A DNA stretch of 64,000 nt. Source: an uncultured delta proteobacterium (GTDB lineage: Bacteria > Desulfobacterota > WTBG01 > CAIYCZ01 > CAIRTM01). The stretch lies in the NCBI GenBank assembly GCA_903911225.1, contig CAIWCT010000037.1, forward strand, positions 2,450-66,449, given 5' to 3'. The translations under genes were made by a program, and so were the position numbers. The notes under the pieces are model-generated. The model was not told the origin of the DNA and made no database searches. It saw only the letters and a program-made list of their open reading frames with translations. How positions within the stretch are numbered: the first letter of the stretch is position 1; every line of letters begins with the position of its first letter. Shown here in pieces: positions 4,804-36,380 of this stretch.

Positions 4804-5772
4804 ATGAACAATTTTGCTTTGATCGGAGCAGCCGGGTTCATTGCCCCGCGCCATATGCAGGCCATTAAAGATACGGGCAATAATCTTGCCGTGGCGCTGG
4901 ACAAGCATGACAGCGTCGGCATCCTTGATCGATACTTCCCCGATGCCGCTTTCTTCACCGAGTTCGAGCGGTTCGACCGGCATGTGGAGAAACTGCGACG
5001 CGGGCCGTCCGACCGGCACATCAGCTATGTCAGCATCTGCTCGCCCAATTATCTCCATGACGCCCACATCCGTTTCGCCCTTCGCGTCCACGCCGACGCG
5101 ATCTGTGAGAAGCCCCTGGTCCTTGAGCCGTGGAATGTCGACGCGCTGGCCGAGCTTGAAAAGGAAAGCGGTCGCCGCATCAACTCCATTCTACAGTTGC
5201 GACTGCATCCGGCAATTATGGCCCTGCGGGAAAAGGTTGCTGCGACCGGTGACAAAATTCATAACATCGATCTGACGTATATCACTTCGCGCGGCCGGTG
5301 GTATCTTGCCTCCTGGAAGGGCAATGATCAAAAGTCCGGTGGGGTTGCCATGAATATCGGGGTCCATTTTTTCGATATGCTGCTGTGGATATTCGGCCCG
5401 GTCGTCAGAAACACAGTTCACCTGCTGGGGCCCATATGTGCGGCAGGCTATCTGGAACTGCAGCGGGCGCGGGTGCGGTGGTTTCTATCTGTTGATGCCG
5501 GCGACCTGCCGAAGGCCGCGTTGCAGCAGGGTATAACCACCCAGCGGGCGCTTATACTGAACGGTGAGGAGTTTGAGTTTTCCGAGGGCTTCACCGACCT
5601 TCATAAAAAAAGCTATGAGCATATTCTTGCAGGGCAGGGCTTCGGCATCCCCGATATCCGCCCGTCCATTGAGCTTGTCCATGATATACGCAATGCACCT
5701 AAAGCCGGGCTTACCGGGGATTATCACCCAATGGCCTTTGGCAAGACAGAAGTAAATAGTTGCAATTTGTAA
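4804..5772 (+). CDS. wbpB: Gfo/Idh/MocA oxidoreductase, WbpB-like UDP-N-acetyl-glucosaminuronate 3-dehydrogenase
   Basis: N-terminus NFALIGAAGFIAPRHMQAIKDTGN. Also YVSICSPNYLH, EKPL and ITSRGRWYLASWKGNDQKSGG. These match my recollection of WbpB/WlbA-type enzymes. A WbpD-like gene follows. Confidence 0.8.
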   Translation: MNNFALIGAAGFIAPRHMQAIKDTGNNLAVALDKHDSVGILDRYFPDAAFFTEFERFDRHVEKLRRGPSDRHISYVSICSPNYLHDAHIRFALRVHADAICEKPLVLEPWNVDALAELEKESGRRINSILQLRLHPAIMALREKVAATGDKIHNIDLTYITSRGRWYLASWKGNDQKSGGVAMNIGVHFFDMLLWIFGPVVRNTVHLLGPICAAGYLELQRARVRWFLSVDAGDLPKAALQQGITTQRALILNGEEFEFSEGFTDLHKKSYEHILAGQGFGIPDIRPSIELVHDIRNAPKAGLTGDYHPMAFGKTEVNSCNL

Positions 5773-5838
5773 GAGTAGAAGGTTAGAGGCTTGGATGTTC
5801 AGAAGCGTTCAAGTCTTTTGCTTATCATCTAACCTTCA

Positions 5839-5890
5839 AATCATCCAATCATCTAGCTGGAAGGTGATAGTGTTGGATGATTAATTTTTT
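5839..5890 (+). terminator. Stem-loop followed by a T-run after the wbpB-like gene (candidate terminator)
   Basis: AATCATCCAA (5839-5848) pairs perfectly with TTGGATGATT (5873-5882), followed by AATTTTTT. A second 10-bp stem-loop precedes it (5778-5787 with 5828-5837). Confidence 0.4.
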
Positions 5891-5931
5891 GCTGCTAGAG
5901 AAACCTCCAAACATCACATGAGCGAAACTTC

Positions 5932-6675
5932 ATGAACACAGTCAACTCTTCACCATCTTATTTTAAGCATGAATCAGCCTATGTTGACGATGGCGCCGAG
6001 ATCGGCGCTGGAACCAAGATCTGGCACTTCTGCCATATTATGAAGGATGCAAAAATCGGGCAGCGCTGCGTCTTCGGGCAGAACGTGAACGTTGATGGGG
6101 GGGTCGTGATCGGCAACAACGTAAAAGTTCAGAATAATGTTTCCATTTACACCGGCATTATCATAGAAGACGATGTTTTTCTCGGGCCCTCCTGCGTATT
6201 GACCAATGTCACCAATCCCCGCAGCCAGATAAGCAGGCGCAGCCTTTACGAAAAGACAATTATCCGGCGCGGGGCCACTATCGGCGCCAATGCCACTGTG
6301 GTCTGCGGCATTACCATTGGCAGATATGCCTTTATTGCCGCCGGAGCTGTGGTGGCAAAAGATGTGCCCGACTACGGCCTCATGATGGGCGCACCTGCCC
6401 GACACAAAGGCTGGATGAGCAGGCACGGCCATATTTTGAAAAATCCTGATACGGACGGCATCATGGTCTGCCCTGAATCCGGCATGAGGTATCAGTTGGT
6501 AATTCAAGATTCAAGATTCAAGATTCAAGATTTGCAACAACCAACGACCAAGGACCAAATGTTTCCGATCTCCGGGTTCCTTCTCCGTTGCCTCGATCTG
6601 GACGAAGAGGCTCTTCTGCCCCCGGAGCTGGCCGTCGGTAAAGAGTTTTATGATGAATTCAAGCAGAATCGTTGA
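5932..6675 (+). CDS. wbpD: Left-handed beta-helix N-acetyltransferase, WbpD/WlbB-like, with an in-frame low-complexity insertion near the C-terminus
   Basis: Hexapeptide repeats (GAEIGAGTKIWHFCHI, GQRCVFGQNVNV, GNNVKVQNNVSI). C-terminal GWMSRHGH...CPESGMRYQLV ... LRCLDLDEEALLP. These two conserved tail pieces are separated by a repeat-derived segment (see findings). Confidence 0.75.
   Translation: MNTVNSSPSYFKHESAYVDDGAEIGAGTKIWHFCHIMKDAKIGQRCVFGQNVNVDGGVVIGNNVKVQNNVSIYTGIIIEDDVFLGPSCVLTNVTNPRSQISRRSLYEKTIIRRGATIGANATVVCGITIGRYAFIAAGAVVAKDVPDYGLMMGAPARHKGWMSRHGHILKNPDTDGIMVCPESGMRYQLVIQDSRFKIQDLQQPTTKDQMFPISGFLLRCLDLDEEALLPPELAVGKEFYDEFKQNR
6502..6532. repeat. Tandem heptanucleotide repeat (ATTCAAG) x4.4 inside the wbpD-like CDS
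   Basis: Read directly: attcaag attcaag attcaag attcaag att at 6502-6532. Confidence 0.95.
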
Positions 6676-6698
6676 CCGTTCACCGTTGATTTTCCATA

Positions 6699-6992
6699 GC
6701 CCTTTCCGGCAGTTTTTATGTTGTCATAGATGACGGGTTGGGGGCAGGGCAGGTTTACCACCTCAATCGTTTCTATAAGGGGCTCCATGTCCACAGAAAG
6801 ACCCAGAGACAATTACGCCATTTTTCGACCAATTCAGTCGCATTTATACTGGCGTCCCTTCCGTATTAAACTGAAGATTATCTCTATGACTACAAAGAAT
6901 TTTTTAGGGTGATCTCGTGAAACGAAGCACCAACTGCGAAGATTGCCGCATAAATACTTTGGCCTCTATTGAAAGTGGGCGTAAGGGGCGGC
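6699..6992 (+). pseudogene. Decayed duplicate of the junction between the two FdtA/WxcM-like genes (3' half of gene 1 plus the first codons of gene 2)
   Basis: By-eye alignment of 6699-6992 with 10256-10552 shows long identical runs (gccctttccggcagtttt, gatgacgggttgggggcag, caggtttaccacct, cgccatttttcgaccaat, ctggcgtcccttccgtatt, ctgcgaagattgccg). It includes the GTGA stop/start overlap. The homologous frame reads ...DDGLGAGQVYHLNRFYKGL...FILASLPY and then hits a premature stop. The N-terminal half is missing. Confidence 0.8.
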
Positions 6993-7035: not shown

Positions 7036-7887
7036 GTGATATCCGACATGTCTCAGTGGCTTAGTGAATATCCTGGTGCGTGGGTCTCTTCAAAAGCCTC
7101 GCTTGGAGAGAATGTAGCTATCGGAATCGGATCCATTGTATACGACAATGTTTGCGTAGGCGACAATACCAGCATTGAAGAGCACTGTGTGATCGGGAAG
7201 TTCAGTCAGCTGACTAACGGCCCCCTTGTGATCGGTGCCGGTTCGATAATTCGCTCACATACTGTTGTCTACCAAGACAGCATCCTGGCTGAAAGGCTGG
7301 AAACTGGCCACCATGTGGTCATCCGGGAAAGAACAAATGCAGGCATCAATTTGCGCGTCGGTAATTTTTCTGATATTGAGGGAAATTGTTCAATAGGTGA
7401 TTACTGCCGCTGTCACAGCTATGTCCACATAGGCAAGGGGAGCAAACTTGGCCATTTTATCTGGTTGTACTCTCTGACGACTTTGACCAATGACCCCCTG
7501 CCCCCTTCCCGGCTTCATTGTCCCGTTGAAATTCAAGACGGCGCCGTCGTGTGCGTGGGCTCCACAGTGCTGCCCGGGGCCATTCTGGGCCGGGGATGCT
7601 TTATCACCGCCGGGGCCCGGGTTTCGGGCACAATTCAGGATGGGGCCGTGATCACTTCCGACAACTGTGTCGCCGGCCATGTCAGCAACCTGATGCATAT
7701 GGAAACAGCAACGCGCCATCCCTGGATGAACCATTTTATGCAGGTCTATCCTGAGTGTTGCCATGACAGGCTGCGGCAGCTGTCTGCCGACATTATGAGC
7801 ACTAAAAAAAAAATCCGGGCGGCCCATCAGGAATGGCGTAAAACCACCCCCGCCTTGCCCCGTGAGGGCAAAGAGAATCCGCAGTAA
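7036..7887 (+). CDS. Hexapeptide-repeat (LbH) acyltransferase, candidate sugar N-acyltransferase
   Basis: Repeats GENVAIGIGSIVYDNVCVGDNTSIEEHCVIG, GAGSIIRSHTVV and GDYCRCHSYVHIGKGSKLG. The start could instead be the ATG at 7048. An ACP, KASIII and SDR follow. An A10 tract lies at 7804-7813 in the C-terminal tail. Confidence 0.75.
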   Translation: MISDMSQWLSEYPGAWVSSKASLGENVAIGIGSIVYDNVCVGDNTSIEEHCVIGKFSQLTNGPLVIGAGSIIRSHTVVYQDSILAERLETGHHVVIRERTNAGINLRVGNFSDIEGNCSIGDYCRCHSYVHIGKGSKLGHFIWLYSLTTLTNDPLPPSRLHCPVEIQDGAVVCVGSTVLPGAILGRGCFITAGARVSGTIQDGAVITSDNCVAGHVSNLMHMETATRHPWMNHFMQVYPECCHDRLRQLSADIMSTKKKIRAAHQEWRKTTPALPREGKENPQ

Positions 7888-7985
7888 AAAGGCGGCGCAG
7901 CGCTCATGCACCGGGGACGAAAATTTCTCTTCAAATACCCTAGGGGCGCGATTTTTCGAAATCAGAGATGTGGGAGAATCATGGT

Positions 7986-8225
7986 ATGACCTATGAAGAA
8001 CTCAGGCAGCAGATTGCTGAAATCCTGGAAATGGACTTGACGGAGCTTACTGAGCAGACGAGCCGAGACAGCGTTGCAACGTGGGATTCCATGGCGGCGC
8101 TCAGTATTATTTCGCTGCTGGATGATGCATGCGACGATGAAATTACGTCTGATGACATCGGGCGGTTCATATCTTTCAGGGCTATTGTCGAGTTTGCACG
8201 AAACAGGGGGATACTTAAAGGTTGA
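7986..8225 (+). CDS. Acyl carrier protein
   Basis: About 79 aa, acidic. Phosphopantetheine-site-like motif ATWDSMAALSIISLLD. GGGAGA RBS 9 nt upstream of the ATG at 7986. The ORF-track start at 7968 is probably too early. Confidence 0.75.
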   Translation: MTYEELRQQIAEILEMDLTELTEQTSRDSVATWDSMAALSIISLLDDACDDEITSDDIGRFISFRAIVEFARNRGILKG

Positions 8226-9244
8226 TGCACATGCATAAGGCAGTCATTAGCGCTTTGGCCAGCTATCTGCCTGAGCGGGTTCTCACTAACAAGGATCTGG
8301 CCGCTCAGTTCGGAACCTGGACAGCCGAGCAGATTTTTGAAAAAACAGGGATCCGCTCTCGGCACAGGGCGGGTCCGGACGAGTGCGCATCGGACCTGGC
8401 GGTCAAGGCTGCGCAGAAGCTTATTGATTCCGGCCGGCTTGACCCTCAGGAAGTGGATTATCTGCTGTTCTGCACACAGGCTCCGGACCACTATCTTCCA
8501 ACGACTGCATGCCTTATTCAGGACCGTTTAAAACTCCCCCGTTCATGTGGCGCCCTTGACTTCAACCTCGGCTGCTCGGGATACGTTTACGGGCTTTCGT
8601 TAGCTAAGGGCCTCATCGAAAGCAGTCAGGCTCGCTGCGTGCTGCTGCTCACCGCCGAAACATATTCAAAATACATCAACAGCAAAGACCGCTCTGTTTG
8701 CACTGTATTTGGTGACGGCGCAGCAGCGACAGTGCTCAGGGCGGCAGAAGGCGCTGCCGGACTGGATCAGTTTATTTTCGGCTCTGACGGCCGGGGCGGC
8801 AGGAACCTGATCGTCCAGACCGGGGGAATGCGCTGCCAGAGAACTGAAGAAACCGCCCAGGAATCAACCGATGCCGACGGCAATGTCCGCTCTGCAAATG
8901 ATCTGTACATGAACGGTCGCGAGATATTTCTATTCGCCATTCAGGCGGTTCCTGTTACCATTAACAGCCTGCTTGAGAAGGCCGGCCTCGGCAGAGATGA
9001 TATTGATTTCTTTGTTTTCCACCAGGCCACCCGCTATATGCTCGATGAGCTTGTCCGGAAATGCAAATTGCCGCCGGACAGGGTGCCCTATGCCTTCGAG
9101 ATGGTCGGCAATACTGTTTCCTCGACAATTCCCCTTGTTCTCGAGGATCTTATTCTGAGCGGTCGCATCAAAACAGGGCACCGGCTCATGCTTGTAGGTT
9201 TTGGCGTAGGCTATTCCTGGGCCGGAGGTATTGTGCGATGGTAA
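8225..9244 (+). CDS. 3-oxoacyl-ACP synthase III (FabH-like KASIII)
   Basis: YLPERVLTNKDL...EKTGIRSRH. Active-site Cys context NLGCSGYVYGL. FHQATRYM and GNTVSSTIPL motifs (Cys-His-Asn triad). The start overlaps the ACP stop (TGATG). Confidence 0.85.
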   Translation: MHMHKAVISALASYLPERVLTNKDLAAQFGTWTAEQIFEKTGIRSRHRAGPDECASDLAVKAAQKLIDSGRLDPQEVDYLLFCTQAPDHYLPTTACLIQDRLKLPRSCGALDFNLGCSGYVYGLSLAKGLIESSQARCVLLLTAETYSKYINSKDRSVCTVFGDGAAATVLRAAEGAAGLDQFIFGSDGRGGRNLIVQTGGMRCQRTEETAQESTDADGNVRSANDLYMNGREIFLFAIQAVPVTINSLLEKAGLGRDDIDFFVFHQATRYMLDELVRKCKLPPDRVPYAFEMVGNTVSSTIPLVLEDLILSGRIKTGHRLMLVGFGVGYSWAGGIVRW

Positions 9245-10026
9245 ACAGGCGGCAAAATGGTTTCCTCGAAGGTGAATGGGCCTGGATTTCGGGCGCTTCT
9301 TCCGGGATCGGCGAGGCTATTGCCCTGCATCTTGCAGGCCTGGGCGTGGGGGTGGTTATTTCGGCGCGCAGCCAGGATAAACTGAACGCAGTGGCCGAAG
9401 CCATCCAGGCCAGGGGCGGTAAGGCGATCCCCCTGCCATTGGATATTACGGACTTTGCTGCCGTAAAGCAGGCAGAGCAAAAAATCAAGGCGGATGTTGG
9501 CAGACTCGACGTGCTTATCCCCTGTGCAGGCAGGGAATTGATGCTGCCATTCAATATTTCCTCACCCGAAAAGTGGCTAAAATTATGGGAAGTCCAGGTT
9601 TTGGGGGCTTTCGAAATGGTCAGGACGGCTTTGCCGATGCTGACAGACAGTGGTGCGCGCAATGGCGGCCAGGGTCGTGTCGTTTTTATTTCTTCGACTG
9701 TGGCTTTGCGCGGCTGGCCTTCCCTGTCGGTATACTCCGCCTGCAAGGCCGGGATTCTGGGCGGCATGCGCAGCCTAGCCGCTGAGCTGGCGCCCAAGGG
9801 CATCCGGGTCAACGCGGTGACTCCGGGCATGGTTCATACGGACATGCAGAAACGCATGTTTGCGCGTATGCCCAAAGATAATCAGGATGCCATTGAAAGT
9901 GCTCATCTGCTGGGGATGGGCGAACCGGCAGACGTTGCGGCAGCTGTTGCCTTTCTGGCTTCATATGAGTCCAAGTGGATTACCGGCGAGAGTTTAGTCG
10001 TCGATGGCGGCCTGACCTTAAAATAA
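9238..10026 (+). CDS. Short-chain dehydrogenase/reductase (FabG-like ketoreductase)
   Basis: Rossmann motif ISGASSGIGEAIA. Catalytic YSACKAG (YxxxK). PGMVHTDM. The ATG at 9238 overlaps the KASIII stop (ATGGTAA). The longer ORF-track start at 9061 lies inside the KASIII gene. Confidence 0.85.
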   Translation: MVNRRQNGFLEGEWAWISGASSGIGEAIALHLAGLGVGVVISARSQDKLNAVAEAIQARGGKAIPLPLDITDFAAVKQAEQKIKADVGRLDVLIPCAGRELMLPFNISSPEKWLKLWEVQVLGAFEMVRTALPMLTDSGARNGGQGRVVFISSTVALRGWPSLSVYSACKAGILGGMRSLAAELAPKGIRVNAVTPGMVHTDMQKRMFARMPKDNQDAIESAHLLGMGEPADVAAAVAFLASYESKWITGESLVVDGGLTLK

Positions 10027-10063
10027 AACTCTGCACCGTTCGCAATGGAAAGAAGGTTCTTAT

Positions 10064-10477
10064 ATGCTGCGTTTCAACGCAGAATGCAAACTTATTGATT
10101 TTCCCAAAATAGAAGACCCGAGGGGAAATCTAACTTTTGTAGAGCAATTAAATCATATTCCTTTTAAGATTGCCAGATCATACTGGATTTACGACGTGCC
10201 AGGTGGGGGGGTAAGAGGTGGTCACGCCTATAAAAAACTGGAAGAAGTTATTATCGCCCTTTCCGGCAGTTTTGATGTTGCCGTAGATGACGGGTTGGGG
10301 GCAGAGCAGGTTTACCACCTTAATCGTTCCTATAAGGGTCTCTATATCCCCAACATGACCTGGAGACAGTTGCGCCATTTTTCGACCAATGCCGTGGCAT
10401 TTATTCTGGCGTCCCTTCCGTATTCTGCTGAAGACTATATTTACGATTATAAAGAGTTCATGAAGGTGATCGCGTGA
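10064..10477 (+). CDS. FdtA/WxcM-like cupin (dTDP-4-keto-6-deoxyhexose 3,4-ketoisomerase family), copy 1
   Basis: FPKIEDPRGNLTFVE...IPFKIARSYWIYDVPGGGVRGGHAYKKLEEVIIALSGSFDV is typical of the FdtA/QdtA/WxcM C-terminal domain. About 137 aa. Confidence 0.8.
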   Translation: MLRFNAECKLIDFPKIEDPRGNLTFVEQLNHIPFKIARSYWIYDVPGGGVRGGHAYKKLEEVIIALSGSFDVAVDDGLGAEQVYHLNRSYKGLYIPNMTWRQLRHFSTNAVAFILASLPYSAEDYIYDYKEFMKVIA

Positions 10478-10899
10478 ACCTGCAGACCAGCTGCGAAGAT
10501 TGCCGTATCATCGCTTTGCCCTCTATCGAGAGTGAGCGCAAAGGGCGTCTTACCCCGATCTATAATTTTGAGCATATCCCTTTTGATATTAAGAGAGTCT
10601 ATTACCTCTACGACGTTCCTGCTGGGTCTGAGCGCGGAGGGCATGCGCATCGCGAACTGCAGCAATTGATCATATCCGTATCTGGCAGCTTTGATGTCGT
10701 AGTGAAGGATGGCGAACAGGAGAAAATATTTACGCTTAACAGGCCCTTTTACGGGCTATATATGCCCCGGCAGATCTGGAGGGAACTGACAAATTTTTCA
10801 GCAGGTTCAATATGTCTTGTTCTTGCTTCTTCGCTTTATGACGAGCATGATTATATTCGCGACTATGAACAGTTCCAAGCCTTCAAGGGTTTTCTGTGA
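10474..10899 (+). CDS. FdtA/WxcM-like cupin, copy 2 (tandem paralogue)
   Basis: [65 protein letters not shown] overlap with copy 1 and with the downstream aminotransferase. Confidence 0.8.
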
Positions 10900-12011
10900 A
10901 TATTCCTTTTCTCGACCTTAAAGCGACCTATCTTGAACTCAAAGCCGAAATGGATGCTGCCTACCAGCGGGTGATGAACTCCGGCTGGTATCTACTCGGG
11001 CGGGAGCTTGAAGCCTTTGAAGCGGAGTTTGCCGAGTATTGCGGCGTGAAACATTGTATTGGTGTAGCAAATGGTCTTGATGCACTGCACCTGATCCTGC
11101 GGGCTTTTGATATTGGCCCGGGGGATGAAGTGATCGTTCCCGCAAATACGTATATCGCCACTTGGCTGGCAGTATCACAGTGCGGCGCATTACCTGTTCC
11201 GGTTGAGCCGGATCAGCGAACCTATAACATTGACCCCGCACTCATTGAAAAAGTGATCACGCCCCGCACCAAAGCAATCATGCCGGTGCATCTGTATGGT
11301 CAGCCGGCTGACATGGACCCGATTCTGGAGATTGCGGCTCGACATGGGTTAAAAGTTATTGAAGACAATGCTCAGGCACACGGCGCCCGCTATAAAGGCC
11401 GCCGTACCGGTGGACTTGGCCATGCCGCGGGCAACAGTTTTTATCCGGGGAAAAACCTGGGCGCTTTTGGCGATGGGGGTGCTGTTACCACCAATGATGA
11501 TACTCTTGCTGATCGTATCCGCCTGCTGCGCAATTATGGTTCTAAAATTAAATACTATAATGATGAAAAGGGCTTTAATTCACGACTTGACGAACTGCAG
11601 GCTGCTTTTCTTCGGGTCAAGCTCACCAAGCTGGATGAATGGAATGAACGTCGCAGAAGAATAGCTGCATTTTATATTCAAAAGCTTGGGGTGGGCAGCA
11701 CAGAGCGATCAGAACTCGTTCTGCCTTTGGTTGCTTCCTGGACAGAGCCGGTCTGGCATTTGTTTGTTATTCGTCATCCCCAACGGGATGAGCTTCAAAA
11801 TAAATTAATGGCAGCCGGTATCGGAACGTTGATTCATTATCCGTTTCCGCCGCATCTTACTAGCGCCTATCGGGAAATGGGGTCCCACGCAGGAGCGTTT
11901 CCCGTAGCTGAAGAATTGGCGCGAACGGTGTTAAGCCTGCCGATCGGCCCCCAGATGAGCCATGAGCAAGCGCATCATGTGATCCAGTCAATGAAAGCGG
12001 TTGCTCGTTGA
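10896..12011 (+). CDS. DegT/DnrJ/EryC1 PLP aminotransferase, FdtB/QdtB-like (3-amino-3,6-dideoxyhexose formation)
   Basis: [10 protein letters not shown]...[83 protein letters not shown]. Confidence 0.85.
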
Positions 12012-12054: not shown

Positions 12055-13536
12055 GTGACCAAAACGCATTATCGCAGCATATTAAAGTCCACCTCATTGA
12101 TTGGGGGGGCCTCGGTCATCAACATTCTGATCGGTATGGTGCGGACTAAGTTTGTTGCTGTGTTACTGGGGCCGTCAGGTGTCGGGCTGATGGGTGTCTA
12201 TGGAACGATCACGGGCATGGTCGGCACGGTGGCAGGCATGGGCATCAGTACCAGCGGGGTGCGGCAAATCGCGTATGCGTATGCCAATGGGGACGAAAAG
12301 GTCGTAGCCGGTACCGTGAAGACTTTGCGACGGACTGTTTGGCTGACAGGCCTGCTCGGGTGTTTCGGAATGGTTGCGGCTGCCTGGCCGCTTTCAAAAG
12401 TGACTTTCGGATCAGGGGAAGAGACGTTCAACCTTGCCTTGTTAGGGAGCACGATTCTGTTTGGATCCCTCGCTGCCGGGCAGGGGTGTTTGCTTCAAGG
12501 GACCCGGCGAATTAAGGAACTGGCCTGGGTTAGCATTTTGGGTGCCCTCAACGGCACACTCATCAGTATTCCGTGTTACTACTTTTGGGGATGCCGGGGG
12601 ATTGTGCCCAGTCTGATTCTCAGTGCGCTGGCGGGGGTTGCGACATCCTGGTGGTTCGCCCGCTGCATTCCGGTGGCGTCGTTTGCGATGCCTTGGCGTG
12701 ACAGCAGAAATGAGGCTGGCCGACTGTTGAGCTTTGGTTTCCCGATCATGTTGACAGGGTTGTTTAGTGCTGTAAGCACCTACCTTATCCGTGTCGTGCT
12801 GATTCGGCAGGTGGGGCTTGACGGTGTTGGTGTTTATCAGGCGGCCTTTGGTTTGTCCGGAATTCTCGCTAATTTCGTTTTGAACGCGATGGGAACGGAT
12901 TACTACCCACGCCTGACAGCAGTGGCGCACGATTCTGTGCGCGCTAGAGAGGAAATCAACTCGCAAACCGAAATTGCGCTTCTTTTGGCCACACCTGCAC
13001 TGGCGGTGACGCTGGTTTGCGCGCCTCTGGTGATAAGGGTATTCTATTCAGGGCAATTTGACGGGGCAATTGAAATTTTGCGCTGGGCCGTGTTCGGAAT
13101 ATTTGGGCGTGTTGTATCTTGGCCATTGGGTTTTTTGATCTTGGCCAAAGGAAAGGCGGCTTTGTTTCTTGTATCGGAAATATTGGCAGGCCTGATTCAT
13201 TTGGCGCTCATATGGGCGTGTACACGGCTCTGGGGGTTGCAGGGAACAGGGGTCGCCTTTTTACTGCTTTATTGTTTTTACACTGTGTTGATATATGGTT
13301 TCTGTACTTATCTCAATCGCAATCTTTGGAATCGGGCAACACTGTTTCATGTGCTGGGATTAGGTGGAATACTGGTGCTGATTGGTATGGCGTGCATGCT
13401 GGTCACGCATGATATTTTGCGATGGACGCTGAGCATTTGTGCCTGCGGAGCCTTAAGTGTGTACTGTTTGGTTCGACTTTCAGCTCGAACCGGAATCACG
13501 CTTCAGACACTCAGAACAAAATTGTTGGGAGCATAA
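12055..13536 (+). CDS. wzx: Polysaccharide flippase (Wzx / MOP superfamily)
   Basis: About 12-14 predicted TM helices. N-terminus ILKSTSLIGGASVINILIGMVRTKFVAVLLGPSGVGLMG is typical of O-antigen translocases. GTG start. Confidence 0.75.
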   Translation: MTKTHYRSILKSTSLIGGASVINILIGMVRTKFVAVLLGPSGVGLMGVYGTITGMVGTVAGMGISTSGVRQIAYAYANGDEKVVAGTVKTLRRTVWLTGLLGCFGMVAAAWPLSKVTFGSGEETFNLALLGSTILFGSLAAGQGCLLQGTRRIKELAWVSILGALNGTLISIPCYYFWGCRGIVPSLILSALAGVATSWWFARCIPVASFAMPWRDSRNEAGRLLSFGFPIMLTGLFSAVSTYLIRVVLIRQVGLDGVGVYQAAFGLSGILANFVLNAMGTDYYPRLTAVAHDSVRAREEINSQTEIALLLATPALAVTLVCAPLVIRVFYSGQFDGAIEILRWAVFGIFGRVVSWPLGFLILAKGKAALFLVSEILAGLIHLALIWACTRLWGLQGTGVAFLLLYCFYTVLIYGFCTYLNRNLWNRATLFHVLGLGGILVLIGMACMLVTHDILRWTLSICACGALSVYCLVRLSARTGITLQTLRTKLLGA

Positions 13537-35145: not shown

Positions 35146-35739
35146 ATGAAGCGTCTGTTCGACCTGAACATCGCATCGGGTTTATCGCTGCTGTTGGCGC
35201 CACTTCTTGTCTTATTGTCTTTGATGGTCCGCATAAGGCTCGGTTCGCCGATCTTTTTTGTTCAAACGCGACCCGGACTGCACGGCAAGCCGTTCAGCAT
35301 GTTCAAGTTTCGCACTATGACCGATGAGCAGGATGCGGATGGCAACCTGCTCCCCGACGATAGGCGGCTAATACCTCTTGGGAAATTTTTTCGCAGCACA
35401 AGCCTGGATGAACTCCCTGAGCTGTTTAACGTGCTCAGGGGGGATATGAGCCTGGTTGGACCGCGGCCGCTGCTGATGGAATATCTGCCGCTCTACTCAC
35501 GGGAGCAGGCGCGGCGGCATGAGGTGCGGCCCGGCATCACCGGCTGGGCGCAGGTTAACGGTCGCAATGCAATCAGTTGGGAAGATAAGTTCAGTCTGGA
35601 TGTGTGGTATGTCGATAATCAATCCTTTTGGCTCGATATGAAAATACTCTGGATGACCTTCATAAAAGTTTTCAAGCGCGAGGGGATCAGCCAGCAGGGT
35701 CAGGCGACGATGGAAAAATTTAAAGGCGGTACAGCATGA
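35146..35739 (+). CDS. Small monotopic phosphoglycosyl transferase (PglC/EpsL-like initiating sugar transferase)
   Basis: MKRLFDL...LLLAPLLVLLSLMVRIRLGSPIFFVQTRPGLHGKPFSMFKFRTM...DELPELFNVLRGDMSLVGPRPLL. Confidence 0.9.
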   Translation: MKRLFDLNIASGLSLLLAPLLVLLSLMVRIRLGSPIFFVQTRPGLHGKPFSMFKFRTMTDEQDADGNLLPDDRRLIPLGKFFRSTSLDELPELFNVLRGDMSLVGPRPLLMEYLPLYSREQARRHEVRPGITGWAQVNGRNAISWEDKFSLDVWYVDNQSFWLDMKILWMTFIKVFKREGISQQGQATMEKFKGGTA

Positions 35740-36380
35740 ATAATGAACTGAAGCCTATTTTTATGTTCGGCGCCAGCGGACATTCCAAAGTGGTGATCGA
35801 TATCATCGAAAAGCAGGGCGCCTACAGGGTGGCTTTTCTTGCAGATGATAATATCGGCTTGAAAGGCTCCGATCTCTATAACTACCGGATCATCGGGGGT
35901 CGGGACGAGTTGCTTACCGGCGACATCAGGCAGGGCATTGTCACCATCGGCAGCAACAGCACCCGGGATCGTGTTGCCGCATGGTTGACTGCTCATGGCT
36001 GTGAGCTGGTCAGCGCTATTCACCCTTCGGCCCAGATCGGTCGGGACGTTTGTATGGGACGCGGCAGCGTAGTCATGCCAGGGGCCATCATCAACTCCGG
36101 CACCCGCATTGGCGGGAATGCTATTGTCAACACGCGGGCCAGTGTCGATCACGACTGCACTATCGGCGAGGCAGTGCACATTGCCCCCGGCTCTACCCTG
36201 TGCGGCAATGTGGTTGTCGGCAGCGGCACACTGATCGGCGCAGGGGCAACCATTATCCCTAATCTGAGAATCGGCAGCAATACCGTAGTCGGCGCCGGGG
36301 CTACGGTCACAGGCGATCTTCCGTCAAACTGTACCGCAGTCGGTACTCCGGCACGGATCATCAAACAAGGAGGACAATGA
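35736..36380 (+). CDS. NeuD/PglD/EpsM-family hexapeptide acetyltransferase
   Basis: N-terminal Rossmann-like IFMFGASGHSKVVIDIIE. C-terminal LbH repeats (IGGNAIVNTRASVDHDCTIGEAVHIAPGSTLCGNVVVG). Confidence 0.85.
   Translation: MNNELKPIFMFGASGHSKVVIDIIEKQGAYRVAFLADDNIGLKGSDLYNYRIIGGRDELLTGDIRQGIVTIGSNSTRDRVAAWLTAHGCELVSAIHPSAQIGRDVCMGRGSVVMPGAIINSGTRIGGNAIVNTRASVDHDCTIGEAVHIAPGSTLCGNVVVGSGTLIGAGATIIPNLRIGSNTVVGAGATVTGDLPSNCTAVGTPARIIKQGGQ

Follow-up and report, generated by a model that had tools for sequence, protein, structure and literature searches.

The 64,000-nt window analyzed here is a stretch of contig CAIWCT010000037.1 from an uncultured delta proteobacterium. Positions 1 to ~47 kb form a single large surface-polysaccharide locus with nearly all genes on the + strand, encoding a β-barrel porin, Wza, Wzc and Wzx along with a Wzy-like protein, numerous glycosyltransferases of the GT2 and GT4 families as well as PglC-like transferases, and several aminotransferases of the DegT family besides further tailoring enzymes. 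Our subject is a run of + strand genes in this locus in which a putative acyl-donor cassette adjoins the genes of a 3-amino-3,6-dideoxyhexose pathway. The run opens with a QdtC-family N-acyltransferase of the left-handed β-helix (LbH) type (7048..7887; 279 amino acids, or 283 with a GTG start at 7036; Pfam Hexapep, E = 2e-18). It continues with a dedicated acyl carrier protein (ACP) of 79 amino acids carrying a WDSM motif (7986..8225, in an open reading frame (ORF) that starts at 7968 or 7986; assigned by comparing a homologue profile with the PDB), a FabH-like 3-oxoacyl-ACP synthase III (KASIII; 8225..9244, alternative start ATG 8231; Pfam ACP_syn_III and ACP_syn_III_C), and a FabG-like short-chain dehydrogenase/reductase (SDR) of 262 amino acids, a predicted 3-oxoacyl-ACP ketoreductase (9238..10026; adh_short_C2, E = 1.5e-57). 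As an earlier, sequence-only reading of this DNA had noted, these genes lie directly upstream of two FdtA-like ketoisomerases and an FdtB/QdtB-like aminotransferase: the FdtA-like 3,4-ketoisomerase FdtA1 (10064..10477; Pfam FdtA, E = 1e-49), its FdtA/QdtA-like paralogue FdtA2 (10474..10899; Pfam FdtA, E = 2e-51), and a pyridoxal phosphate-dependent aminotransferase of the QdtB/FdtB/DesV type, predicted to act at C-3 of a dTDP-3-keto-6-deoxyhexose (10896..12011; DegT_DnrJ_EryC1, E = 3e-124). A Wzx-type flippase (12055..13536; Polysacc_synt and Polysacc_synt_3) follows directly, a synteny found also in the related loci that we label L009, L017, L024, L096 and L182.

The genes of this run are closely spaced, with short gaps or overlapping reading frames between them. 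The stop codon of the ACP gene overlaps the start of the KASIII gene in a TGATG (8223-8227) and the KASIII stop overlaps the SDR start in an ATGGTAA (9238-9244), both read from the sequence; 4-nt GTGA overlaps link FdtA1 to FdtA2 and FdtA2 to the aminotransferase. The translational coupling that had been proposed for all four cassette genes therefore holds for the ACP, KASIII and SDR genes, but not for the LbH gene, which ends ~95 nt before the ACP gene without overlapping it. A GC-rich hairpin (7893-7913), lacking a T-run on the + strand, is found right behind the LbH stop codon; promoter and terminator scans gave no signal exceeding the shuffled background. The gene set recurs in unrelated metagenome contigs, which argues that the juxtaposition did not arise by chance.

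The LbH protein is the enzyme on which the interpretation turns. A family profile built from 25 homologues and searched against the PDB matched the solved structure 3fs8 of QdtC, a dTDP-3-amino-3,6-dideoxy-D-glucose N-acetyltransferase, with E = 1.1e-50 (profile positions 4-233, chain residues 16-253), the next PDB match following at 1e-14. The window protein and QdtC are ~31% identical and have NDPxPPS and (H/Y)PW motifs in common, the C-terminal region included. An AlphaFold2 model of the protein (pLDDT 91) retrieved QdtC chains at Foldseek ranks 1-4 (TM 0.64-0.79; top match 0.73-0.79), with LpxD, LpxA and GlmU coming after them at a TMq of ~0.55 or less. Residues N148 and D149 are invariant across the 25 family members; in the alignment with QdtC they fall in its LTNDPTPPS segment, whose Asn-Asp pair we take to be catalytic-site residues. 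The ketoisomerase and C-3 aminotransferase genes expected beside a QdtC-family enzyme are found 2-3 kb downstream in the same run. The comparisons of sequence and model support the assignment of the protein as a QdtC-family 3-N-acyltransferase whose predicted acceptor is a dTDP-3-amino-3,6-dideoxyhexose. It is the sole member of the QdtC-like family in this genome, and a search of a plasmid collection with the protein returned distant haloarchaeal acyltransferases only. An identity as an LpxA/LpxD-like lipid A enzyme, which is what the JGI names of homologues and the top NCBIfam matches would imply, was rejected: the scores lie far under the cut-offs and QdtC is the specific match.

The downstream enzymes point to the same class of sugar. 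Both ketoisomerases match solved enzymes of the FdtA, QdtA and WlaR types. FdtA1 matches the PDB entry for FdtA, 2pa7, with E = 1.9e-27, and its top solved isomerases (2pa7, 7n67 and 5tpu) are about equal; FdtA2 matches 7n67 (7e-36), 5tpu (1.5e-34) and QdtA (6e-30). The aminotransferase is of the C-3 type judging by its similarity to DesV (2oga, 2.9e-138) and QdtB (3frk, 1.3e-132). The ketoisomerase matches to solved structures do not distinguish 3-amino-3,6-dideoxyglucose (Qui3N) from its galacto counterpart (Fuc3N). If 7n67, 5tpu and QdtA are Qui3N-pathway enzymes, as we take them to be, the relatives of FdtA2 slightly favor the gluco form. The two paralogues differ in their RG(G/A)HAH motif, the two histidines of which are presumably the catalytic His49 and His51 of FdtA: FdtA2 has the canonical H-A-H, whereas FdtA1 reads RGGHAY, with H-A-Y in place of the H-A-H of FdtA. 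The same pattern appears in the tandem FdtA pairs of the window (10064-10477), L009 (13546-14046) and L171 (6426-6830), where the first paralogue has RGGHA(Y/F) and the second RG(G/A)HAH, so that the second histidine of the motif is consistently replaced in the first paralogue. This paralogue may be a specialized or non-catalytic partner subunit.

Each of the three putative donor-making proteins retains the residues that its role would require. The small ORF scores as an ACP in NCBIfam (E = 4.7e-5), and a profile of five homologues finds only ACPs in the PDB, with the Ser of its DSM motif aligned with the phosphopantetheinylated Ser of DSL. The Pfam PP-binding match is not significant (E = 0.033), and a whole-genome scan with PF00550 also missed the ORF. 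Its likely start is ATG 7986, which is preceded by a GGGAG motif; homologues open with MTYEEL or MTLEEL. The profile evidence supports the ORF being a divergent ACP. The KASIII passes the NCBIfam model NF006829 (293.8 bits, cut-off 249) and fails the equivalog FabH model TIGR00747 (264.5 bits, cut-off 292.1). Nor is its setting that of a housekeeping FabH, as its neighbors are glycan genes and FabD is encoded on another contig. Its Cys (NLGCSGY), His (FHQAT) and Asn (GNTVSS) triad is intact and aligned with that of solved KASIII enzymes, including 3gwa of Burkholderia pseudomallei (E = 1.3e-113), listed in the PDB under a generic name. The 3gwa/3gwe structures are a possible template for an analysis of the primer pocket. 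The SDR keeps the GxxxGIG, Ser and YxxxK motifs; its best PDB and NCBIfam matches are of the FabG and glucose dehydrogenase types, with all FabG models under their equivalog cut-offs. As far as sequence can tell, families and catalytic residues support the proposal that a KASIII, a ketoreductase and a dedicated ACP would suffice for a 3-hydroxyacyl-ACP. The module genes include no dehydratase, no enoyl reductase and no elongating or second KAS. Elsewhere the genome encodes RmlB, FabD and two phosphopantetheinyl transferases.

As KASIII, FabG and ACP are core parts of fatty acid and polyketide synthases, the trio could in principle serve lipid or secondary-metabolite synthesis and be embedded in a glycan locus by chance. 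The metagenome-assembled genome has ~11 other PP-binding matches, including an 1870-amino-acid open frame with two PP-binding domains. Against this, the genes are coupled and co-directional with sugar-tailoring genes on both flanks, unrelated contigs show the same combination alongside genes for FdtA and an aminotransferase, and a dehydratase, an enoyl reductase and an elongating KAS are lacking. We consider a lipid or secondary-metabolite role very improbable.

We propose instead, with a probability of roughly 60%, that a short 3-hydroxyacyl group, probably 3-hydroxybutanoyl, is built on a private ACP by the products of these four genes and then joined to a 3-amino-3,6-dideoxy sugar. The cassette would tailor this sugar for the exopolysaccharide of the Wza/Wzc/Wzx/Wzy locus. 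The starting sugar nucleotide, dTDP-4-keto-6-deoxyglucose, would come from RmlA and RmlB, which the genome encodes elsewhere, and one or both FdtA-like isomerases and the QdtB-like aminotransferase would turn it into dTDP-Qui3N or dTDP-Fuc3N. In parallel, the ACP would be phosphopantetheinylated by a genomic phosphopantetheinyl transferase and malonylated by the housekeeping FabD. The KASIII would then condense an acyl-CoA primer, in the simplest case acetyl-CoA, with malonyl-ACP to a 3-oxoacyl-ACP (acetoacetyl-ACP), and the FabG-like SDR would reduce this to a 3-hydroxyacyl-ACP (3-hydroxybutanoyl-ACP). Because the module has no dehydratase, enoyl reductase, or second or elongating KAS, the chain is expected to stop there. 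The LbH enzyme would move the acyl group to the C-3 amine, giving a dTDP-3-(3-hydroxybutanoylamino)-3,6-dideoxyhexose that a glycosyltransferase of the locus would build into the repeat unit. Our confidence is higher in the wider claim, namely that an ACP-derived acyl group is placed on a 3-amino-3,6-dideoxyhexose.

The evidence for carrier-bound donors comes mainly from the relatives of the LbH enzyme. In a sample of reference genomes we collected 43 loci with an LbH protein 32-56% identical to that of the window. In 36 of the 43, the immediate neighbors of the LbH gene encode an ACP, a ligase of the adenylate-forming (AMP-binding) kind and an SDR, the usual order being RmlA-LbH-ACP-ligase-SDR-(small ORF)-FdtA-aminotransferase-Wzx. 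A KASIII beside the LbH gene, which we had expected, occurs in none of the 43 reference loci, its place in the relatives being held by the ligase. The order LbH-ACP-(ligase or KASIII)-SDR-FdtA-aminotransferase is kept across phyla. The closest metagenomic relatives of the enzyme (55-56% identity) lie in the same ligase-type operon, which contains no other acyltransferase; L182 and L183 show the QdtC-like LbH protein as the sole acyltransferase of the operon. In a maximum-likelihood tree, the window enzyme falls into a clade (SH-aLRT 95) of 46 sequences, 41 of them encoded beside a carrier-protein module; solved QdtC and a module-less Eubacterium homologue lie outside this clade. Within it, the window LbH forms a group (support 81) with its counterparts in Desulfocicer vacuolatum DSM 3385, a cultured relative with the ligase-type operon, and in the metagenome locus L096. 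The latter, found only via the KASIII query, reads LbH-ACP-SDR-KASIII-FdtA-aminotransferase-Wzx and so has the window's gene set in slightly changed order. As ligase modules are common and KASIII is rare beside this clade, the window holds a rare KASIII version of a widespread architecture in which a QdtC-like transferase is paired with a carrier module. In the ligase modules (L009 10001-13553 and 35 further loci, L010-L048; also L182, L183 and L184), an ORF of 145-170 amino acids without a Pfam match often follows. Our literature searches turned up no paper on the LbH-ACP-ligase-SDR module. Those on QdtC with an acyl carrier protein, or on FabH/FabG in polysaccharide clusters, gave nothing relevant, the O-antigen search returning unrelated lipid and quorum-sensing papers.

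The closest functional precedent known to us from the literature is the viosamine island found in Pseudomonas syringae pv. tabaci 6605, which contains vioA (aminotransferase), vioS (KASIII), vioB (LbH), vioR (3-oxoacyl-ACP reductase), acp, vioM and vioT (PMC3927599). The flagellin glycan of this organism carries D-Quip4N(3-hydroxy-1-oxobutyl)2Me, and vioA, vioB, vioT and vioR mutants lose the sugar; the OrfB-D genes in the flagellin glycosylation island of P. aeruginosa PAK are homologous (PMC3927599). Like that island, the window combines a dedicated ACP, one KASIII, a ketoreductase and an LbH protein beside a DegT-family aminotransferase in a dTDP-6-deoxyhexose pathway, with the ACP serine, the triad of the single KASIII and a reductase-type SDR all in place. 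The transferase, however, is not of the VioB/PglD/NeuD type that acts at C-4: against TIGR03570 (NeuD/PglB/VioB) it scores 53.3 bits, below the cut-off of 160.8. Whereas VioB is annotated as a dTDP-viosamine acetyltransferase and the island serves a C-4 amine and flagellin, the window has a QdtC-type enzyme, a C-3 amine reached by the FdtA/QdtB route, and a Wzx/Wzy exopolysaccharide. This failure against TIGR03570, together with the QdtC-type LbH and the C-3 aminotransferase, indicates that the cassette, though it would function in the manner of the viosamine island, is not orthologous to it.

Further systems resemble parts of the window. QdtC of Thermoanaerobacterium thermosaccharolyticum (3fs8/3fsb/3fsc) shares the LbH fold, the C-terminal extension, and partners of the QdtA/FdtA and QdtB types, but takes acetyl-CoA and lacks carrier-protein genes in its neighborhood, whereas the window enzyme belongs to a sister clade found almost always beside an ACP module. 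In Flavobacterium psychrophilum, wfpC-wfpG encode two KAS, an ACP and a ketoreductase along with a PglD-like transferase, together predicted to place 3,5-dihydroxyhexanoyl on Qui2NAc4N (Cisar et al. 2019, PMC6519341). There too, KAS, ACP and ketoreductase genes lie in an O-antigen cluster and an LbH enzyme is predicted, as it is here, to move a hydroxyacyl group from the ACP to an amino sugar. The differences lie in the two KAS, the C6 dihydroxy chain, the PglD homologue and the 4-amine of the UDP-Qui2NAc4N acceptor, as against one KASIII, a QdtC-type enzyme and a C-3 amine in the window. Finally, hydroxyacyl amino sugars exist in O-antigens, as the sequence-only reading had stated: 3-hydroxybutanoyl is known on Fuc3N or Qui3N, where it is attributed to FdhC (Escherichia coli O103, Salmonella O55, Hafnia) and QdhC (Acinetobacter) (PMC4869667). 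Their (R)-3-hydroxybutanoyl dTDP-Fuc3N/Qui3N, formed after FdtA/QdtA and FdtB/QdtB, corresponds to the window's predicted product. The FdhC/QdhC clusters as described are nevertheless without ACP, KASIII and ketoreductase genes, while the window encodes an LbH transferase and seems to produce the acyl donor itself. FdhC has a GNAT fold and uses 3-hydroxybutanoyl-CoA as donor; the window transferase is an LbH protein, and a GNAT occupies the transferase's place in the related loci L091 and L171. The tetronate genes of Vibrio cholerae O1 (rfbK-O/wbeK-O), which had also been offered as a precedent, reportedly combine, within an O-antigen locus, a carrier protein with acyl-activating and tailoring enzymes to place an unusual N-acyl group on perosamine. 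They are said to load the carrier by a ligase, resembling the ACP, ligase and SDR modules and not the KASIII type, with a different sugar, transferase and acyl group. A KASIII/FabG/ACP set feeding such a transferase is less unusual than the sequence-only reading had judged, as P. syringae offers a genetically tested precedent (PMC3927599) and wfpC-G a published prediction (PMC6519341); beside this LbH clade, the KASIII type is rare.

Several points weigh against the proposed function. The source is a metagenome-assembled genome, 85% complete, and our proposal rests on sequence comparison. QdtC itself uses acetyl-CoA according to the name and ligands of 3fs8/3fsb/3fsc; the LbH and ACP genes are set apart by the ~95-nt spacer with its hairpin; the locus encodes further N-acyltransferases, a WbpD-like LbH protein (5932-6675) and a PglD-like one (35736-36380); and no feature of the LbH sequence points directly to ACP docking. 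The primer specificity of the KASIII is not readable from its sequence and could allow a longer or branched chain. The P. syringae authors, moreover, drew the transfer of acetoacetyl first and its reduction after (PMC3927599).

An alternative reading makes the LbH protein an ordinary acetyl-CoA-dependent QdtC/FdtC that forms Qui3NAc or Fuc3NAc, with the ACP, KASIII and SDR serving another acceptor, through the WbpD-like or PglD-like LbH protein or an MBOAT protein, or a non-glycan product. The nearest solved relative, the intergenic gap and the other acyltransferases of the locus all fit this. It does not explain why 41 of 46 clade members are linked to a module while QdtC proper falls outside, why the L182, L183 and L096 operons have no other acyltransferase, or why the gene order is conserved across phyla, and we regard it as quite unlikely. 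It is this linkage, the position of QdtC outside the clade and the status of the LbH protein as the sole acyltransferase of related operons that lead us to read the enzyme as ACP-dependent. The comparative data (the clade loci and the homology to QdtC) support the proposal that the LbH enzyme transfers a carrier-bound acyl group to a 3-amino dTDP-sugar. Sequence and structure prediction show the families, the intact motifs, the coupling of genes and their recurring order; the donor (ACP rather than CoA), the C4 length and reduction before transfer, as well as the gluco or galacto configuration of the sugar, we infer.

Chain length and the order of the last two steps each allow a variant of the same cassette. 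If the KASIII were primed not by acetyl-CoA but by a propionyl, branched or medium-chain unit, the 3-hydroxyacyl group would come out longer or branched. KASIII primer preferences vary widely and nothing here fixes this one; the closest solved homologue, 3gwa, bears only its generic name, and cassettes with members of this KASIII subfamily are many and vary in composition. Yet the only chemically defined single-KASIII cassette yields a C4 group (PMC3927599) and the two-KAS cassette a C6 group (PMC6519341), a pattern that fits one condensation per KAS and so argues for C4 here; 3-hydroxybutanoyl is, besides, the hydroxyacyl group reported on Qui3N and Fuc3N of O-antigens (PMC4869667). Another primer therefore seems improbable. 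In the other variant, the LbH enzyme would transfer acetoacetyl from the ACP and the SDR would then reduce the dTDP-N-acetoacetyl sugar. The P. syringae pathway implies this order, naming dTDP-N-acetoacetylviosamine as a precursor (PMC3927599), and the window SDR scores equally against glucose 1-dehydrogenase-type SDRs and FabG. The locus L171, which has FdtA/FdtB genes with GNAT, ACP and KASIII genes but no ketoreductase, makes 3-oxoacyl transfer feasible in relatives. The coupling of the SDR gene to the KASIII gene through the ATGGTAA overlap speaks for reduction on the carrier instead, as do the 3-oxoacyl-ACP reductases among the other best SDR matches and the logic of type II fatty acid synthesis. 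We judge the acetoacetyl-first order unlikely and retain 3-hydroxyacyl transfer from the ACP as the proposed final step.

The donor module appears to be portable. Close homologues of the KASIII (58-70% identity) co-occur with the same WDSM-type ACP but with varied transferases: a different LbH type in L089, a GNAT in L091 and a 221-amino-acid hexapeptide-repeat LbH protein in L092. The last of these (L092 8001-13356, Massilia sp. TN1-12) reads KASIII-ACP-KASIII-Rieske oxygenase-SDR-LbH and lies between flagellar export genes (flhA) and flagellin, an arrangement that suggests a flagellin glycan bearing a more elaborate, hydroxylated C6 acyl group. In L171 (6426-10156), the order FdtA1-FdtA2-GNAT(177 amino acids)-ACP-KASIII-aminotransferase, with no ketoreductase, suggests that a 3-amino sugar with an N-acetoacetyl (3-oxoacyl) group might be made there by a GNAT in place of the LbH protein.

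The window itself carries a trace of rearrangement at the edge of the cassette. A decayed copy of the junction between the 3′ part of fdtA1 and the 5′ part of fdtA2 (6696..6990, + strand, 295 nt) lies immediately 5′ of the LbH gene and forms a direct repeat with 10253-10547, gap-free over the 295 nt at 81% identity. In this pseudogene fragment, frame 0 encodes an FdtA1-like peptide with a premature stop and frame 2 the N-terminus of FdtA2. The repeat copies enclose the acyl module together with the 5′ part of fdtA1, which fits the scar of a duplication or of a cassette exchange via recombination at fdtA; the remnant marks the boundary upstream of the LbH gene as one that was rearranged in the past. 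Immediately 5′ of the remnant, genes at 4804-6675 for a GFO/IDH/MocA oxidoreductase and another LbH acetyltransferase form a WbpB/WbpD-like pair, which suggests a separate 3-keto/3-amino UDP-sugar branch within the same locus.

Combining these findings, we consider it an evenly balanced proposition that QdtC has a large, unnamed sister clade spanning phyla, to which the window LbH enzyme belongs and whose members take acyl groups directly from dedicated ACPs instead of CoA, much as LpxA and LpxD do. Its exchangeable donor modules, mostly ACP, ligase and SDR and occasionally ACP, KASIII and ketoreductase, would diversify the N-acyl groups of 3-amino-3,6-dideoxyhexoses, and the fdtA remnant would be the scar of one such exchange. 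We found no paper that describes a QdtC sister clade as acyl-carrier-dependent sugar N-acyltransferases. What is new here is modest: the transferase family (QdtC type) and the acylated position (the C-3 amine). The logic of the acyl cassette was already established genetically in P. syringae, which makes the gain incremental.

O-antigens, capsules and flagellar glycans owe their antigenic and physical properties to the N-acyl groups on rare amino sugars. If our proposal is true, the window holds a second, self-sufficient route to 3-hydroxybutanoyl 3-amino sugars, in which the donor is built on a private ACP and transferred by a QdtC-type enzyme. Glycoengineering could then draw on the QdtC-like clade for sugar N-acyltransferases that depend on acyl-ACP, and a QdtC-like LbH protein encoded beside an ACP would be annotated neither as an N-acetyltransferase nor as LpxD or LpxA, as several sources now call its homologues.

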